Shown: positions 53,303-61,529 of the stretch, in pieces | How positions within the stretch are numbered: position 1 is the stretch's first letter | Layout: each line of letters begins with the position of its first letter | Assembly: GCA_965249135.1 (NCBI GenBank) | Contig: OZ252220.1 | Location: forward strand, 1,376,001 to 1,440,000 | Length of the DNA stretch: 64,000 bases | Direction of reading: 5' to 3' | Source: Alphaproteobacteria bacterium | GTDB taxonomy: Bacteria; Pseudomonadota; Alphaproteobacteria; GCA-2746255 | The notes under the pieces: generated by a model | What the model was told of the DNA's origin: nothing | Seen by the model: the letters and a program-made list of their open reading frames with translations, nothing else | Databases searched by the model: none | Program-made: the position numbers and the translations under genes

Positions 53303-53896
53303 TTACTCAAACCGGCCGCACTCGCGCGCGCCCTCGCCCCAGAAGTCTGTGCACTGGGCCTTCGTCATCTCGCCCTTGCCCTTGATCTTCGCGATCACGT
53401 AAGCCGCGACGCGGGCGATGTCGGGCTCGCGGAGACGCTTCGCCGGCTTCGGCGGCCTGTCTGGCCCAAGCTCGTCCCACGTCATCCCGAAGCAGTCGTA
53501 GCCCTTGTAGGCCTTGCGGTGAAAGGCCGGCATGCCGGTGCCGGGCCGGCCGCAGGCGACGACCTCAACGATCTGATCAACGTCGAGGATGGTCTCGCGG
53601 AGCGAGGGCGCCGCACCGCCGTAGCTGCCGCCGCCGCCGCCATGCCATTTGTGGCAGCCGACGCAGTTCGCCTGTCTGTAGACATGCTTGCCGCGGGCAA
53701 GTTCATCCGGGCCTTCGCCCTCGATCTTCGGCGCACGACCCACGGCAGGTCCCGCCGCCAGCTGTTCCGCCGTCTCAATCGGTGTGGCTTCGTGCGAATT
53801 TGCCGGCTCCAGCTTGCCGCCGAGCCAAAGCGCCAACAGCATGCCGCAGGCCAGCAACACGGCAATCAGCGAAGGGACGAAGGTCTTCGGGTTCAT
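53303..53896 (-). CDS. Monoheme cytochrome c, probable partner of the PQQ dehydrogenase
   Basis: CVGCH, GTGMPAF axial Met, four further Cys in the mature region; N-terminal hydrophobic segment. Confidence 0.85.
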   Translation of the reverse strand: MNPKTFVPSLIAVLLACGMLLALWLGGKLEPANSHEATPIETAEQLAAGPAVGRAPKIEGEGPDELARGKHVYRQANCVGCHKWHGGGGGSYGGAAPSLRETILDVDQIVEVVACGRPGTGMPAFHRKAYKGYDCFGMTWDELGPDRPPKPAKRLREPDIARVAAYVIAKIKGKGEMTKAQCTDFWGEGARECGRFE

Positions 53897-53990
53897 GGCA
53901 GGGCTAGCATACCACGCGCGAGAAAGGGTAAGGGGATACCCCGCCAGTCCCGGCGGAGCACCTTATCCTCCCTAAACTTCGATGGTTTTC

Positions 53991-55778
53991 TTAAGGCAGC
54001 GCGAAGATGAAGAGCATCGCGCCGGGCTTCACCTTCTCGAGCCCTTTCGTTCCGCTGATGAACCACTTCGGCCAGGAGCCACCGAGACCCACGGTAAGCG
54101 CCACATATTGCTTGCCATCGATCGCGTAGGTGACGGGCGGCGCGTTGATGCCGGCGCCCGTCTCGAACCGCCAGAGCTCGTCCAAGGACTTCCCGTCAAG
54201 CGCCACGAAGGCCCCTTCCGGATAGCCGACGAAGACGAGGTCGCCTGCCGTCGCCAGCACGCCGCCCAGCATCGGATAGGTAGTTTCCTCTTTGGCGGTG
54301 ACCTTGCCCGTCGTAACGTCGACCGCCGTCACGCTGCCGGTGATCGCGCTGGGTTGTTTCGGCCCGCCGCCGGTGAACCATTCCCGATGCTTATGGTCGC
54401 CCGGATTGACGACCGTGAGATCGAGCTGGTTGCAGCTTTCGATGACCGGGATGTAGACGACTTTACGTTCCGGGTTGTAGGCCATCGGTGGCCAGTTCTT
54501 GCCGCCCATGTTGCCGGGGCAGGGATTGCCCGTCTTGTTCTCGCGGGTCGCCGCCGAGCCGGGCTCGTAAGGTTGCACGTCCTTCTCGGGATCGTAGGAG
54601 AGTGGCCGGCCCGTCTTCGGATCGAGCCCCTTCGTCCAGTTCAGTTTCTTCACGAACTGGGTTGCCCAGAGGAAGGCCCCGCTCACACGGTCGAGCGCAT
54701 AGACGTAGCCGTTGCGGTCCGCATGGAGGGCCATCTTCTTGTCGTCAATATCGACGAGGATGTGTTCGGAGGTCGCGTCGTAGTCGAAGGGATCGTTCGG
54801 CGTGTACTGGAAGTGCCACTTGATCTCGCCGGTTGAGGCGTCCAGTGCGAGTGCGCTGGCCGAGTAGAGGTTGTCGCCGGGGCGGTAGGCGTTGTCCCAA
54901 TCCGGGCCCGGATTGCCGGTCCCCCAGTAGATGAGGTCGAGGTCCGCATCGTAAGTGCCGGTGACCCAGGTCGATCCGCCGCCCGTCTTCCAGGCCTCGT
55001 GGTCGTCCTTCCAGGTCTCGTGGCCCGGCTCGCCGGGGGCGGGGATCGTGTAGGTGCGCCAGACTTCCTCGCCGGTCAGCAGATCCGTCGCCGCCAGCCA
55101 GCCACGGATCCCGTACTCGCCGCCGGCAATTCCGGTAATCGCCAGGTTCTTGACGATCAAGGGCGCCGCCGTGATCGTCTCGGACTTGTCGGGATCGGCA
55201 ACCTTGCGCTCCCAGATCAGCTCGCCCGTCTTCTTGTCGAGAACCAGCAACCGCCCGTCGAGGACGTGGGAGACGACCTTATTATTCCACAGGGCGATGC
55301 CCCGGTTGTTGACGCCGCAGCAGGTGACGTTGCCGGCCCAGTCGCGGTCGATCTCGGGATCGTATTCCCAGACGAGGCGGGGGATCCCATCCCGCACATC
55401 GAATTTGTAGACGGTGCCCCAGCCATCGGGGATGTATAGGTAGCCATCCTCGACGATCGGGGTCGCCTCATAGCCCGCGAAGGGCCAGATGCCACCCGCC
55501 TGGATGCCACCCAACGCTATCGTGCCGGTGACCTGCAGTTCCTTGACGTTCTTGCGGTTGATCGCGTCGAGGCGCGAGAAGCGGTGGGCCTCGTAATTGC
55601 CGTGATGGGTGATCCAGTTTTCCGGCTCCTTGTAGGTATTCATGAGCCGTTCGTTCGTCACCTGGGCGACCGCACCCTCCATTTCACCGCTCTCGATGAA
55701 GAGCGCAAGCGCCAGCAAGGCGGCGCCTATAACGGCCACGATCCAAGGCCAGTTTTTCGTGCTTGTCTCGGACGTCAT
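53991..55778 (-). CDS. PQQ-dependent dehydrogenase, methanol/ethanol family, candidate lanthanide-dependent
   Basis: Vicinal CCGVNNRG, GGEYGIRG, WGTGNP, TPNDPFDYD, CPG..GGKNW; ATG 55778 after GGGGGAC. Confidence 0.9.
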   Translation of the reverse strand: MTSETSTKNWPWIVAVIGAALLALALFIESGEMEGAVAQVTNERLMNTYKEPENWITHHGNYEAHRFSRLDAINRKNVKELQVTGTIALGGIQAGGIWPFAGYEATPIVEDGYLYIPDGWGTVYKFDVRDGIPRLVWEYDPEIDRDWAGNVTCCGVNNRGIALWNNKVVSHVLDGRLLVLDKKTGELIWERKVADPDKSETITAAPLIVKNLAITGIAGGEYGIRGWLAATDLLTGEEVWRTYTIPAPGEPGHETWKDDHEAWKTGGGSTWVTGTYDADLDLIYWGTGNPGPDWDNAYRPGDNLYSASALALDASTGEIKWHFQYTPNDPFDYDATSEHILVDIDDKKMALHADRNGYVYALDRVSGAFLWATQFVKKLNWTKGLDPKTGRPLSYDPEKDVQPYEPGSAATRENKTGNPCPGNMGGKNWPPMAYNPERKVVYIPVIESCNQLDLTVVNPGDHKHREWFTGGGPKQPSAITGSVTAVDVTTGKVTAKEETTYPMLGGVLATAGDLVFVGYPEGAFVALDGKSLDELWRFETGAGINAPPVTYAIDGKQYVALTVGLGGSWPKWFISGTKGLEKVKPGAMLFIFALP

Positions 55779-56060
55779 GGATGTCCCCCCGCCTTCGTTC
55801 GATTTTTTCCGGCCCAAACGGCCGGGCCTGATTTCTTCCATGATGCCGCCTTCTCGGTAGGCTGCCAAGCCCCCTTTTAGCCTGCGGGCCCACGGCGAAA
55901 ACTGCCGGTTTTTAAGGCCATGCGCGCCCTTCCGGCGCCCATTTTTCGGTTGAAGAAGGCGGGGCGGCTGGCCCACACTCCCCTTCTTCCGCGCGTCGAG
56001 ACGGCGCGCGGAAGAAAAAGCGAGCGGCCTTAAGCGAGAAGCCTTATAGCTGAGAAAGCG

Positions 56061-57860
56061 ATGAACCGCCAGCAACGCCGAAAGCAGACCCACGCGTCCC
56101 GGCGAAAGGGAAATCCTTCTCGCAGCGACGGTTTCTCGGATCAACGGCTGGACGACGGGCTTCGCCTGCATCAGCGCGGCGAGTTCGAACGGGCCGAAGC
56201 GATTTACAGGAACGTCCTGCGCCAGCAGCCGGACCATCCAGAGGCACTGCACCTGTTGGGTGTCCTTCTTCATCAAAGAGGCGCCGGCGAGGAGGCGGTT
56301 GCCACCATCGAGCGGGCGCTCGAGAAGGACCCGCAATCGGCGGACGCCACTTACAACCTTGCCGATATCCTGCTCGCCCAAGGCAAGACGGCGGAGGCCG
56401 TCCAACGCTTCCGGCATGCGCTGACACTTCGTCCCGACTTCCCGGAAGCGGCCATCAGCTTAGGCATTGCCCTTCGCAGCCATGGCGAGATGGACCAGGC
56501 TCTTGCCCAGCTTCGCGAGGCGGCGGAGAACTACCCGGATTTCGCGGAGGCCCACTACAATCTCGGCGACACGCTGCGCATCCAAAACGAACTCGGCGAG
56601 GCGAAGGCGGCGTTCGAAAAGGCGCTCGACGTCCGCGCCGATTTCGCGGAAGCCGAGAACAACCTGGCGAGCATCCTGCGCACCGAAGGGGACATCGAGG
56701 GCGCCGCCCGACACATCGAGAACGCCCTTCGGATCAATCCGGATTTTGCCGAGGCCCACAACAACCTCGGCAATATCCGAAAAGCAAAGGGGGTGCTTGA
56801 AGAGGCGATCCCGCATTTCGAAGAGGCCATCCGGCTTCGTCCCGATTTCGCCGAGGCCCACTACAATCTGGGCAACACCTATCTGGCGACGGGCCGGATC
56901 GCGGAAGCAACCCAAGCTTTTAAGAAGGCGCTCGCGCTCAATCCGGATTTCGAGAACGCGCGCGCCAGTCTTTCCGAAGCCCAGCAGCGGCAGGTGCCGC
57001 GCTGGCACTTCGCCATGATGAACGACCGCGCCCGCAACGATGCTTACGACCAGGCGATCCGTGAGGCCATCTCGGAAGATCGGACGGTGCTGGATATCGG
57101 GTCCGGTGCCGGTTTGCTTTCGATGATGGCGGCGTGCGCCGGAGCGAAGCACGTCACTGCCTGCGAGACCGTCGCCCCGATCGCCGAAATGGCCGGCCGC
57201 ATCATCAAGGAAAACGGTCTTTCCGAACGCGTGACGGTCGTGGCGAAGCATTCCTACAATTTGAAGATCGGGGACGACCTTCCCGAGCGGGCCGACGTGA
57301 TGGTGACGGAACTTCTGAACGCCGGTTTTCTCGGCGAGGGAATCCTGCAGGTCATTCAGCATGCGCGAGCGAATCTTTTGAAGCCCGATGCAACGATCAT
57401 CCCGCAGGGTGGCACCGTTTATGCGGCGTTGATCGAGAGCGAGCGCCTCGTCGAAGAGGACCGCGTGAGCGAGGCGGCCGGTTTCGACGTCCGGCCCTTC
57501 AACGAATTTGCGAACGCCGAATATTTGACGAAGCGTCTGAATGCCTACCCGCACCAATTTCTTTCCGAGTCGGTGGAAGTCTTCTCCTTCGACTTCCTGG
57601 GCAAGCCCGCGAAACCGGAGACGAAGGCAATCCCGATCACCGCCACGGCAAGCGGCACCTGCCATGGGATTGTCCTGTGGTTTCGCTTAGAACTGACGGA
57701 CGCGATTTTCATCGAGACGAAGCCACGCGAGGCGGACACCCATTGGCGCCAAGCGATCTATCTCGAGGAAACGCCGCGCAAGCTGCAAACGGGCGAAGGC
57801 TGCCGGCTGCTGGCAAGCCACGATTGCCGTTACATTTCATTGAAACTGGCCGCCGACTGA
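56061..57860 (+). CDS. TPR-repeat protein fused to a PRMT-type SAM-dependent methyltransferase
   Basis: About eight TPRs (AEAHYNLG type), then RWHFAMMNDRARN, VLDIGSGAGLLSM, double-E loop VTELLNAGFLGEG, THW loop DTHWRQ. Confidence 0.85.
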   Translation: MNRQQRRKQTHASRRKGNPSRSDGFSDQRLDDGLRLHQRGEFERAEAIYRNVLRQQPDHPEALHLLGVLLHQRGAGEEAVATIERALEKDPQSADATYNLADILLAQGKTAEAVQRFRHALTLRPDFPEAAISLGIALRSHGEMDQALAQLREAAENYPDFAEAHYNLGDTLRIQNELGEAKAAFEKALDVRADFAEAENNLASILRTEGDIEGAARHIENALRINPDFAEAHNNLGNIRKAKGVLEEAIPHFEEAIRLRPDFAEAHYNLGNTYLATGRIAEATQAFKKALALNPDFENARASLSEAQQRQVPRWHFAMMNDRARNDAYDQAIREAISEDRTVLDIGSGAGLLSMMAACAGAKHVTACETVAPIAEMAGRIIKENGLSERVTVVAKHSYNLKIGDDLPERADVMVTELLNAGFLGEGILQVIQHARANLLKPDATIIPQGGTVYAALIESERLVEEDRVSEAAGFDVRPFNEFANAEYLTKRLNAYPHQFLSESVEVFSFDFLGKPAKPETKAIPITATASGTCHGIVLWFRLELTDAIFIETKPREADTHWRQAIYLEETPRKLQTGEGCRLLASHDCRYISLKLAAD

Positions 57861-57924: not shown

Positions 57925-59157
57925 ATGGCAAGCCGGCCTGAAAAAATCGTCTTCGAAGGCGCCCATGGATTGAAGCTTGCGGCGCGGCTCGACCGTCCGA
58001 AGGGCCCTCCCAAGGCCTATGCGCTTTTCGCCCATTGCTTCACCTGCACGAAAGACATCTTCGCCGCCTCGCACATCGCAAGCGCGCTTGCCGAAAGCGG
58101 AATTGCCGTGCTGCGCTTCGATTTCACCGGCTTAGGCAGCAGCGAAGGCGAGTTCAAAAACACGAATTTCACGTCGAACGTCGAGGATCTCGTGGCCGCC
58201 GCGGACTACCTTCGAGCTGAGCTCAAAGCACCGAAAATCCTGATCGGTCACAGCCTGGGCGGTGCGGCGGTGCTGGTCGCGGCAAGCCGCATCAAGGAAG
58301 CAATTGCCGTGGTAACCATCGGTGCGCCTTCCAGCCCCGACCATGTGAGCCACCTCTTCGAGGGCGGGCTCGACGCCATCGCCGAGCATGGCGAGGCCGA
58401 AGTGCGCATTGGCGGGCGGCCCTTCCGCATTCAGAAACATTTCCTGGAGGACATCGCTTCCCAGAACATGAGGGAAGCGATCGGGTCATTGAAACGGGCG
58501 CTGCTGGTTTTCCATTCGCCGGTCGACCAAACGGTCGGCATCGAGAACGCGCAGGAGATCTTCGTCGCGGCGAAACATCCGAAAAGTTTCATCTCGCTCG
58601 AGGATGCGGATCACCTGCTCGGCAAAAAGAAGGACGCGACCTACGTCGCCGAAACCCTTGCCGCCTGGGTGAAGCGCTATCTCGACGGGGAAAGGGAGGG
58701 CGAAACGGCGCCCAAGCTGGACGCGGCGGAGGGCACCGTGCTTGTCGCGGAGACGGGGACGGGCAAGTTTGCGAACGTCATTCAAACGGGCCTCCACCGC
58801 GTCGGCGCCGACGAGCCGGTCGCCTTTGGCGGCACGGATACGGGGCCGTCGCCCTATGACCTTCTGCTGGCGAGCCTCGGCGCCTGCACATCGATGACGC
58901 TTCGCATGTACGCGGACCGGAAGAAGTGGCCACTTGAGAAGGTGGCCGTCACGTTACGCCACCAGAAGATTCATGCAAAAGACTGTCGGGACTGCGAGAC
59001 GAAGGGGGGAAAGGTCGACGAGATCGAGCGCGAAATCGAAGTCGAAGGCCCGCTCGACGCCGAGCAGCGTGAAAGGCTGCTGGAAATCGCCGACAAATGC
59101 CCGGTCCATCGCACGCTCCATTCGGAGGTTCGCATCGTCTCGCGATTGAGCGAATAG
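57925..59157 (+). CDS. Bifunctional alpha/beta hydrolase-OsmC family protein
   Basis: FAHCFTC, GHSLGG, then OsmC ADEP..GG.DTGPSPYDLL..LGACT...KCPVHRTL. Confidence 0.92.
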   Translation: MASRPEKIVFEGAHGLKLAARLDRPKGPPKAYALFAHCFTCTKDIFAASHIASALAESGIAVLRFDFTGLGSSEGEFKNTNFTSNVEDLVAAADYLRAELKAPKILIGHSLGGAAVLVAASRIKEAIAVVTIGAPSSPDHVSHLFEGGLDAIAEHGEAEVRIGGRPFRIQKHFLEDIASQNMREAIGSLKRALLVFHSPVDQTVGIENAQEIFVAAKHPKSFISLEDADHLLGKKKDATYVAETLAAWVKRYLDGEREGETAPKLDAAEGTVLVAETGTGKFANVIQTGLHRVGADEPVAFGGTDTGPSPYDLLLASLGACTSMTLRMYADRKKWPLEKVAVTLRHQKIHAKDCRDCETKGGKVDEIEREIEVEGPLDAEQRERLLEIADKCPVHRTLHSEVRIVSRLSE

Positions 59158-59162
59158 TTCTT

Positions 59163-59993
59163 TCAGGCAATCTCGCGCAGAAGCCCGATGCCGGCTTCGC
59201 AGTCCACGTAACGAAGCCGGTAACACGCGCCGGCCTCCGCGATCTTCAGGAGGCGTTGCAGCTTCGTTTCCGCATCGATTCCTTGAGTGAAATACCGCCC
59301 CATGAGATCGCGAAGCACCTCGCTCTTGCCGATCGCCTCCATGCTGGCGGAGCCCGAGCTCATCCGATCGAGGAGCACGATGGCTAAAATGGGCGCCGCC
59401 TCGCCAAACTCGGCGATCTCGCCCGGCCTCAAGCCCACGAACCGTCCATAGTCGTTGCCGAGCACCTCGCGTTCACGCAGGAAGCCGCAAAACCCATCCG
59501 TTACGTTTTCGGGTAGCGGCAGACGAAGCCTGGGCGCTACGCCAAAGGAAAGGGCGCTTCCTTCGCTTTCGCGCACCGCCAGCACGTCGTCCGTGAAAAC
59601 GGCCGCACCCGCCGCCGCCCCGTGGACCGCCATCGTGCTCTTGCCGACCTTGCCGCTGGCCGGGAAGACGAGCAGCCCGCCCTCCCACCTCATGGCCGCG
59701 GCATGAATGCAAAGCAGCTCGGGATTGGCGGCGATGAAGGCGATATAGAGTTCGGCAAAGAAGCCCGCGACGGCTTCGTAATCGTCGATGTAGTCGTAAG
59801 GCGCGGAATCGAGCCCTTGGGATTCGACCCGGTAGCCCGTCCGCGTCCGCTCAAGCACGACGACCGGGTTGAGCGGATCGCCATCCCACGCCCCGTTCGG
59901 CCAGGTCGCGATCGGGGCGTGAAGGAAGGGCAGGAGGTGATCGCAGCCTGCGAAGGAAATCGGGGACGGGACCCCTTCGAAACGAAGCAGCAT
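59163..59993 (-). CDS. HPr-kinase-related P-loop kinase (not the PTS HprK)
   Basis: CIHAAA, Walker A variant ASGKVGKST, FTDD, plus PRLRLPLP. Confidence 0.75.
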   Translation of the reverse strand: MLLRFEGVPSPISFAGCDHLLPFLHAPIATWPNGAWDGDPLNPVVVLERTRTGYRVESQGLDSAPYDYIDDYEAVAGFFAELYIAFIAANPELLCIHAAAMRWEGGLLVFPASGKVGKSTMAVHGAAAGAAVFTDDVLAVRESEGSALSFGVAPRLRLPLPENVTDGFCGFLREREVLGNDYGRFVGLRPGEIAEFGEAAPILAIVLLDRMSSGSASMEAIGKSEVLRDLMGRYFTQGIDAETKLQRLLKIAEAGACYRLRYVDCEAGIGLLREIA

Positions 59994-60371: not shown

Positions 60372-61529
60372 TTAATTCAAAGCCTCCTCAAGGATGTAGA
60401 TCAACTCGACCACCGGTTTCCCGAACTCGAGGCGCACGGTTTCCCGGCCCGCCTCGCGAAGGTGAAACCGTCCCTTCGCCAACGCCGGCAGGTAGTCCGG
60501 ATGATGGGCGTAACGGCCGGAAGGCTGAAGGGTGAACCCTTCGTCCTTCCCCTTCTCGAGCGAGAGCGCAAAAAGCCCCCCTGCACGCAATGCTTGGAAG
60601 GCAGCCGTCATAAGCGCTTCGAGATCGCCGAAATAGACCAGCGAATCGCAGGCGATCAGAAGGTCGTAAGCCGGCTCGGGCGCCCGCTCGAGGAAGGTAA
60701 GCGCGTCTTCCACATGGAGCGCGTCGTAAAGGCCACGCGCCTTGGCCCGTGAGATCATTTCCTGCGAAAGGTCCACCCCCGAAAGCGTGTTCGCCAGTTC
60801 CCGAAACGGAATGCCTGCGAGCCCCGTCCCGCAGCCGATGTCGAGAATGTCGAGGGGGCCCGAGTTTCGGTCGACGACGCGCCGGACGTATTCAAAGAGG
60901 ATTTCCGGCCCGCGGTAGTTCAGGCTTTTGCAAAGATGTTCGTCGAAGATTTCGGCGTAAACGTCAAAATAGTTCTACACATAGGCTGCCGGCGGGCGTG
61001 GCGGCATTTCTCCTTCTCCGAGTGCGGCGATCATGAAGCCCACCTCGACGTCATCCGGATCCAGCTCCTGGCAGCGGCGATAGCAACGTAGCGCTTCTGG
61101 CTTGCGGTTCAGGTGACTGAACGTTTCACCAAGCCGCCAATGGGCTTTTTCATAATTGGGCTTAAGCGCGATCGCGCGCTCGAAGAAGGGGGCGGCACGT
61201 TCATGCTGGCCTTCCATCGTCAGCGCCTTTCCGATCGCATAGGCGTTGCGTGCTTCGACCCTTGTGCGTCGATTATGAATCTCGGCCGCTTCGTCCTTGC
61301 TTCCTTGTTCCACCAGTAGGCTTTCCAGGGCTTCAAGGGCCGCCAGGTGGCGGGGCACGCGCGTAAGCAGGTGGCGGGGCACGCGCGTAAGAAGGTCCCG
61401 GTAGCCGGCGACGGCGTCGGCAAGACGGCCCGCTTGACGATGCTGCTCGGCAAGGTAATAAGCCTGCGCCTCGTCGGGTTCTGCCGCGTCCGACGGCCCC
61501 AAGGACTTACTCGACGCCTTCGGCGTCAT
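60372..61529 (-). pseudogene. TPR + class I SAM methyltransferase interrupted by one in-frame TAG
   Basis: Frame continues past TAG at 60975-60977: AAYV*NYFDVYAEIFDEHL...ILDIGCGTG...GVDLSQEM...SGRYAH. Confidence 0.8.
61344..61391. repeat. 24-bp in-frame tandem duplication
   Basis: CAGGTGGCGGGGCACGCGCGTAAG twice, giving LTRVPRHL twice in the protein. Confidence 0.93.

Follow-up and report, generated by a model that had tools for sequence, protein, structure and literature searches.

Among the animal protein arginine methyltransferases (PRMTs), PRMT9 carries about three tetratricopeptide repeats (TPRs), against eight in the protein described here. A second point of reference is bacterial. A protein combining Haem_oxygenas_2 and Cupin_2 domains has the layout of SznF, which carries out N-nitrosation in streptozotocin biosynthesis (PMC10849742). 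The substrate of SznF is N-omega-methyl-L-arginine, which the arginine-guanidino methyltransferase SznE/StzE makes from free L-arginine (PMC11705231). The window analysed here is a stretch of 64,000 nucleotides from an alphaproteobacterial genome (contig OZ252220.1). An open reading frame (ORF) at positions 56061..57860 of the + strand begins with ATG, is intact and encodes 599 amino acids according to the ORF list and its translation, and a genome search found it as a single copy in the 2.12-Mb genome. The protein consists of a TPR array followed by a PRMT-type module, and its sequence and modelled fold make it very likely an active PRMT-fold arginine guanidino-N-methyltransferase. Its features are as follows.

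56061..57860, + strand, stop codon included: whole gene, TPR plus PRMT-type methyltransferase, 599 amino acids (ORF list, translation)
56061..56138, + strand: basic N-terminal tail, residues 1-26 (8 Arg/Lys, 1 Asp/Glu; no hydrophobic stretch)
56139..56954, + strand: eight contiguous TPRs, residues 27-298 (register of exactly 34 residues each; Pfam)
56955..56999, + strand: capping helix and junction from the last TPR to the catalytic core, residues 299-313 (alignments)
57000..57047, + strand: N-terminal helix motif RWHF-x-M-x-ND-x2-RN, RWHFAMMNDRARNDAY, residues 314-329 (conservation; PRMT9 chains)
57087..57125, + strand: S-adenosylmethionine (SAM)-binding motif I, VLDIGSGAG..., VLDIGSGAGLLSM, residues 343-355 (alignment to motif I of PRMT7 and PRMT9)
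57306..57341, + strand: double-E loop, TELLNAGFLGEG, residues 416-427, with E417 and E426 (conservation; alignment to PRMT7 and PRMT9)
57402..57413, + strand: PQGG hinge from the Rossmann domain to the barrel, residues 448-451 (P448 invariant in two alignments of relatives)
57411..57806, + strand: PRMT beta-barrel (Pfam PRMT_C, PF22528), residues 451-582 (Pfam, AlphaFold2 strands, Foldseek)
57735..57755, + strand: THW loop DTHWRQA, residues 559-565, with T560, H561 and W562 (alignment to PRMT7 and PRMT9)

Among solved proteins the C-terminal half matches PRMTs, to an extent well outside what chance would give. A phmmer search of residues 305-599 against the PDB returned 62 distinct sequences at E <= 0.001, and all 60 of those listed are arginine methyltransferases. 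Mouse PRMT7 (E 4.3e-52) is followed by bovine PRMT9 (8rbk, E 1.1e-46) and human PRMT9 (E 4.8e-44), with T. brucei PRMT7 (E 5e-35), C. elegans PRMT7 (E 2.1e-26) and PRMT1, PRMT6 and CARM1 (~1e-21 to 1e-22; PRMT1 ~2e-22) further down. Pfam PRMT_C passes its cut-off of 27 on the window protein, with 47.1 bits. The AlphaFold2 model, which covers residues 305-599 only and was built from 22 aligned sequences, has a mean pLDDT (predicted local distance difference test) of 92.7 and a predicted template-modelling (TM) score, pTM, of 0.88, with strands throughout the barrel stretch. In a Foldseek search of this model against the PDB, T. brucei PRMT7 was the first match (4m38, E 8.5e-29, TM 0.85), PRMT9 of human and bovine origin reached TM 0.84-0.87 and mouse PRMT7 0.79-0.81, and all matches listed were PRMTs. 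TM scores to solved PRMTs range from 0.77 to 0.87 over ~300 columns, and the C-terminal beta-barrel is present. Sequence and model thus support the C-terminal half as a true PRMT7/9-type module. This single module, at residues 311-599, ends at the C-terminus of the protein, as seen from the translation and Pfam.

A preliminary description of this DNA, made from its letters, had proposed a single-module fusion of about eight TPRs to a PRMT7/9-type enzyme and had listed the RWHF helix, motif I, the double-E loop, the PQGG hinge and DTHWRQA. This outline holds throughout. The repeats number eight, each of exactly 34 residues and supported by Pfam; all of the motifs were found and assigned residue positions; the fusion is borne out by phmmer, PRMT_C and the predicted fold; and one module closes the chain. 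In the Foldseek comparison that it suggested, the top match was neither PrmA nor a small-molecule methyltransferase lacking the barrel. PrmA (L11 methyltransferase) was also considered as an assignment and rejected, with only positions 154-258 of its 296-position model, a generic Rossmann portion, matching at 32 bits. In a whole-genome scan the PrmA-model match of the window protein covers these same positions and the N-terminal L11-binding domain is not matched.

The catalytic residues are strongly conserved in two groups of bacterial relatives, one fused to TPRs (46 sequences) and one linked to SznF-like genes (26 sequences), which are described further below. In the N-terminal helix W315, H316, M319, D322 and R325 are invariant in 46/46 and 26/26 sequences, respectively, and this helix motif also occurs in PRMT9 chains (phmmer alignments, PDB). 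E417 and E426 are likewise invariant (46/46 and 26/26) and align with the double-E loops of PRMT7 and PRMT9. The SAM-binding site combines motif I, in the form VLD/E-x-G-x-G-x-G, with an acidic post-I residue, E369, shared by 85% or more of the sequences in each group. In the THW loop W562 is invariant, and H561 is kept in 33/46 TPR-group sequences and in 26/26 SznF-linked ones. Taken over the 72 bacterial relatives, W315, H316, M319, D322, R325, E417, E426 and W562 form an invariant or near-invariant set, which both groups retain along with motif I and E369.

The TPR region is equally well defined. Pfam TPR families match it at E values from 1e-53 to 1e-27, with TPR_11 (E 1.1e-53) and TPR_1 (E 1.6e-47) among them, and among solved structures it is matched best by consensus TPR proteins and by the TPR superhelix of O-GlcNAc transferase (OGT; E 1.6e-75, ~270 residues). 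The capping-helix junction aligns without gaps in 25 bacterial TPR-fused relatives. The last two TPRs, an NPDF turn, the capping helix and RWHF-x-M-x-ND continue into motif I in a gapless alignment to bovine PRMT9 (8rbk); the PRMT9-like layout of TPRs followed by RWHF-x-M-x-ND, claimed in the preliminary description, is therefore collinear and gapless with a solved PRMT9. Against PRMT9 the TPRs and junction add ~27 bits (140.0 versus 112.7 bits), no more than two generic TPRs give. Common descent of the fusion with PRMT9 is for this reason suggested rather than shown.

The basic N-terminal tail begins with MNRQQRR, a start kept across ten aligned orthologues of 592-600 amino acids. Because residues 1-26 contain no hydrophobic segment, the protein is probably cytoplasmic. 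A role of the tail in automethylation or nucleic-acid binding is speculation. The gene does not stand out from its flanks in composition, the GC content being 0.60-0.63 throughout.

Relatives of the window protein were sought in several collections. A word-indexed search gave 226 relatives, and ten relatives of 592-600 amino acids are 76-97% identical to it over the catalytic half, the two named ones being metagenome-assembled genomes (MAGs) of Alphaproteobacteria. An exhaustive search of representatives clustered at 50% identity, a library that includes eukaryotes, gave 10,568 clusters at E <= 1e-3, 5,903 at <= 1e-10 and 962 at <= 1e-30. At least 198 relatives were confirmed by a pattern scan that took one genome for each prokaryotic species. 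The 80 kept for analysis come from Alpha-, Beta- and Gammaproteobacteria, Cyanobacteriota, Bacteroidota, Actinomycetota, Acidobacteriota, Myxococcota and Bdellovibrionota. A match at E <= 1e-30 was seen in 33/301 genomes (26/247 genera) of an evenly drawn sample from the window's class, counting the window's own genome and one unpublished genome (G045), and a first sample of genomes from other families gave 3/35 with a match at E <= 1e-10. An orthologue is present in 5/5 congeneric genomes, at 76-82% identity over the catalytic half. PRMT_C was found in 0/14 well-known control genomes, E. coli, B. subtilis and Caulobacter among them. Existing labels of some relatives are 'type II/III protein arginine methyltransferase' at the Joint Genome Institute (JGI) and 'TPR protein' or 'L11 methyltransferase' at NCBI. 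The view expressed in the preliminary description that the PRMT type is essentially eukaryotic does not hold for genes, relatives being widespread in bacteria, and the window protein is a further member of a known, biochemically uncharacterised bacterial family. One metagenomic relative of 886 amino acids (P0015) is a triple fusion, in which N-terminal Methyltransf_24 and then a long TPR array stand ahead of a PRMT module 50% identical to that of the window.

The bacterial relatives fall into two main groups. The locus set consists of 79 non-window loci from species-representative genomes which, with the window, make up the 80. Comparison with the window's TPRs by BLAST marks 45/79 loci as TPR-fused, and Pfam was concordant on all 45 proteins submitted to it (31 with TPR, 14 without). 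At 26/79 loci a stand-alone relative adjoins a protein of ~470 amino acids with Haem_oxygenas_2 and Cupin_2 domains, and none of these 26 bears TPRs. Genes for ATP-grasp and major facilitator superfamily (MFS) proteins are often near, and the hosts are Actinomadura, Streptomyces, Streptosporangium, Corallococcus and Pyrinomonadaceae. The loci are L005-L009, L011, L012, L014, L016, L019, L021, L023, L024, L027, L028, L032, L035, L038, L054, L060, L061, L066, L067, L070, L078 and L079, and those from non-actinomycete hosts are L007 and L009 (Pyrinomonadaceae) and L028 (Corallococcus terminator). The remaining 8/79 loci are neither TPR-fused nor SznF-linked, and 2 of these are cut by contig ends. 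The SznF-linked loci represent putative N-nitroso or related arginine-derived pathways. From this neighbourhood, rather than from an alignment to SznE, we infer that the 26 genes encode SznE-type free L-arginine methyltransferases.

All 80 catalytic domains, none of them dropped, were placed on a maximum-likelihood tree. The labels cluster strongly on it, with few changes (4 for TPR, 2 for SznF linkage), and 0/500 shuffles gave values as low. On it the window protein pairs with that of a Rhodospirillaceae MAG (support 100), within a 50-row group of 46 TPR-fused members and 4 others, 2 of which are cut by contig ends. Specific to the SznF-linked group are seven conserved positions (R314, C421, R452, F489, R492, E542 and G548), which may contact the carboxylate and amine of the free amino acid. 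The window protein keeps two of them, R314 and R492.

The proposed function is methylation of arginine in a protein or peptide captured by the enzyme's own TPR array, which we regard as somewhat better than an even proposition; arginine as the acceptor, a protein or peptide as the substrate and dimerisation are all inferred. In this scheme the Rossmann half would bind SAM through motif I (residues 343-355) and E369, and the double-E glutamates E417 and E426 would hold the substrate guanidinium in a pocket closed by the THW loop (H561, W562). SAM would donate its methyl group to one of the terminal nitrogens of the arginine. Substrate delivery would fall to the superhelix of eight TPRs, which the conserved capping helix ties rigidly to the core, as in PRMT9. 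In favour of the TPRs as a substrate arm are the regularity of the eight repeats, the TPR fusion of 45/79 relatives, the clustering of the TPR label on the tree and the gapless junction with PRMT9. Several points weigh against this proposal. TPRs can serve in scaffolding instead of substrate capture, and the sole characterised bacterial enzyme linked to the family, by neighbourhood, is SznE/StzE, which acts on free L-arginine. The branch that separates the TPR group reaches just 82 in the Shimodaira-Hasegawa-like approximate likelihood-ratio test (SH-aLRT), and the catalytic cores of both bacterial groups are 37-47% identical to that of the window. Synteny does not extend beyond the genus and no conserved neighbour gives a clue to a substrate, recurrent neighbours of TPR-fused genes across the 80 loci are only generic histidine kinases and ATP-binding cassette (ABC) ATPases, and no experimental study of a bacterial TPR-PRMT was found in the full-text literature, subscription journals being outside its coverage.

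The strongest competitor is an SznE/StzE-like methylation of free L-arginine, or of a small metabolite derived from arginine, with the TPRs used for scaffolding or regulation only. The 26/79 related loci that adjoin an SznF-like gene, with ATP-grasp and MFS genes nearby, speak for it, and the partner layout matches that given for SznF (PMC10849742), which works with SznE/StzE (PMC11705231). The core catalytic residues are all common to both groups, and the nearest tree neighbour of the TPR group is the SznF-linked Pyrinomonadaceae pair (SH-aLRT 91). However, no SznF-like gene lies near the window gene, and a search of its genome with L019:6904-8322 as the query gave no match. The window protein also lacks 5/7 of the residues specific to the SznF-linked group (C421, R452, F489, E542 and G548), and 0/26 SznF-linked genes bear TPRs. 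The profile of the TPR group outscores that of the SznF-linked group by 20-35 bits against PRMT7 and PRMT9, which is a hint rather than a phylogeny, and an eight-repeat peptide-binding array is of no obvious use for a free amino acid. We therefore consider a free-arginine role unlikely, though the most serious of the alternatives.

A PRMT fold with other chemistry, such as methylation of peptide Lys, Gln, His or an N-terminus, or with none, as a silent scaffold, is improbable. The variability of H561 within the TPR group would allow it, but the window protein retains E417 and E426, both residues of the THW loop (H561 and W562), motif I and the WHF-M-D-R helix, all of them features that vary little or not at all across the family. 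The gene is moreover intact in 5/5 congeners, and its retention there in a small genome of 2.1 Mb was counted as evidence for selection on it. That the nearest solved relatives are animal PRMT7 and PRMT9 might suggest a gene recently acquired from a eukaryote, or a contaminated assembly, rather than a resident bacterial gene. Yet the host assembly is a single 2.12-Mb contig, 98.75% complete with 0.01% contamination, the GC content of the gene equals that of its flanks, and its neighbours are conserved in four congeners. The nearest relatives are bacterial, at 40-97% identity, versus 31-39% for named eukaryotic proteins. Such an origin has hardly any probability left and was ruled out by synteny and composition. 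Methylation of a protein or peptide arginine stays the favoured function.

Relations to the eukaryotic enzymes were also explored with profiles of the two bacterial groups, which score ~296-330 bits against animal PRMT7 and PRMT9 in the PDB; the scores fall to ~190-217 for T. brucei PRMT7 and to ~145-157 for type I PRMTs. The domain layout marks the window protein as neither a PRMT9 nor a PRMT7 orthologue, because it has one module and not two. A search for longer relatives yielded four named eukaryotic proteins (from Parachlorella and Eutreptiella, an ant PRMT7 and one from a midge). In a 109-row tree including these four, the eukaryotic rows are scattered (4 changes), two of them are on long branches and the deepest split has a support of 61. 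With deep nodes this weak and eukaryotic rows scattered, no direction of transfer can be read from the tree. A more far-reaching proposition is that the TPR-fused group represents the long-sought bacterial protein arginine methyltransferases, and that their fusion of TPRs, capping helix and RWHF core and the N-terminal half of PRMT9 go back to one invention. Gene transfer would then have carried the architecture between the bacterial family and the PRMT7/9 lineage, in the simplest case out of bacteria into an early eukaryote, and SznE-type free-arginine enzymes would be a side branch of this radiation. As a whole this is doubtful, marginally more so than the free-arginine role.

Some of the long relatives contain two modules. 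The second is the better conserved in P0125, P0127, P0130 and P0020 (679-718 amino acids; first module weaker), and it is well conserved next to a degenerate first module in P0267, P0268, P0273-P0275 (795-879 amino acids) and P0270 (Parachlorella). This order of strength is reversed, with the first module stronger, in two insect PRMT7-like rows and in the PRMT7 and PRMT9 chains of the PDB. Among those checked, TPRs precede the modules in P0267 and P0268 (several TPR families each) and in P0273 (two). Most of the two-module long relatives carry no taxon label.

The order of genes around the locus in the genus is cytochrome c and a pyrroloquinoline quinone (PQQ) dehydrogenase (divergent), the TPR-PRMT gene and a convergent unknown ORF of 276 amino acids, with HldE and a GmhA-like gene further on. 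This order is kept in the four congeneric genomes compared, and synteny within a single genus says little about function. Many recurrent neighbour clusters at the wider set of loci are antisense shadow ORFs of the PRMT gene itself. The neighbours in the window are as follows.

53303-55778, - strand: PQQ-dependent dehydrogenase of the methanol/ethanol family plus cytochrome c, divergent from the PRMT gene (TIGR03075, 555 bits)
57925-59157, + strand: alpha/beta-hydrolase fused to an OsmC-like domain, 410 amino acids, starting 64 bp downstream of the PRMT gene
59163-59993, - strand: ORF of 276 amino acids, convergent to the PRMT locus and conserved beside it in four congeners

The dehydrogenase ORF as listed (53991-56417) is over-extended, since the family match begins at residue 251, and its start is likely near residue 214. 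Besides the window, two of the four congeners compared (G001 and G002) have the hydrolase-OsmC gene and the other two (G003 and G005) lack it, so it is not an obligate partner. The 276-residue ORF carries a P-loop-like SGKVGKS segment; Pfam gave nothing for it even at E 5, and other PRMT loci have no relative of it. At 60372-61529 on the - strand lies a second gene of the TPR-methyltransferase kind (TPR plus Methyltransf_12), which in congeners is a single ORF of ~370 amino acids. At 60975-60977 the window copy is broken by an in-frame stop, the residue of a congener at this place being Gln, and near residue 47 it contains an 8-residue direct duplication. In contigs from the related-strain runs X5 and X7, position 60977 is G rather than A, which restores the Gln codon; run X1 reads as the window does. 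A search for expression listed 24 runs, with no RNA holder among them.

The literature covered, subscription journals again lying outside it, yielded no bacterial enzyme for the methylation of protein arginine. The absence of PRMT_C from the 14 control genomes may explain why the family has escaped study. The several dozen TPR-fused PRMT genes of Proteobacteria, Cyanobacteria and Bacteroidota are concrete candidates for bacterial protein arginine methylation, and the cultured carriers among them include Pseudanabaena, Sphingobium sufflavum and Asaia. One scaffold would here serve two chemistries, on free arginine and, putatively, on peptidyl arginine, and such a family could show how PRMTs gained protein substrates and where the architecture of PRMT9 came from. 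The window gene alone is of modest value, being one more member without a substrate clue, and the higher interest lies in the family.

Four described systems provide the comparison. OGT and other TPR-fused enzymes that modify proteins share with the window protein an N-terminal TPR array feeding a C-terminal transferase. The catalytic domain of OGT is unrelated, so this is a likeness of design and not of family. SznE/StzE apparently belongs to the same bacterial family, judging from the stand-alone SznF-linked relatives at 26 loci, whose cores are 37-45% identical to that of the window and share all of its core catalytic residues. It differs in acting on free L-arginine (PMC11705231). The SznF-linked genes differ in having no TPR array and always an SznF-type partner, whereas no such partner was found for the window gene near it or, with the query used, in its genome. 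PRMT7 (type III; mouse 4c4a and 6ogn, C. elegans 3wst, T. brucei 4m36, 4m38 and 5eku) is the best match in both sequence and structure, and the T. brucei enzyme, to judge from its chain of 343 amino acids, has a single module like that of the window. Animal PRMT7, in contrast, is a tandem pseudo-dimer without TPRs, has other sequence at the window's RWHF start and carries acidic residues in its double-E loop where the window has N-A-G. PRMT9 (animal type II enzyme; bovine 8rbk; human 6pdm, 7rbq and 9ay9) differs in its two tandem modules per chain, both of which align to the single module of the window, in having C at the position of H561 in the THW loop and in an identity of 28-31% in the Foldseek alignments. 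It resembles the window protein in its TPRs placed directly before the catalytic core, in the context of its double-E loop and in its fold, at TM 0.84-0.87 to the window model.

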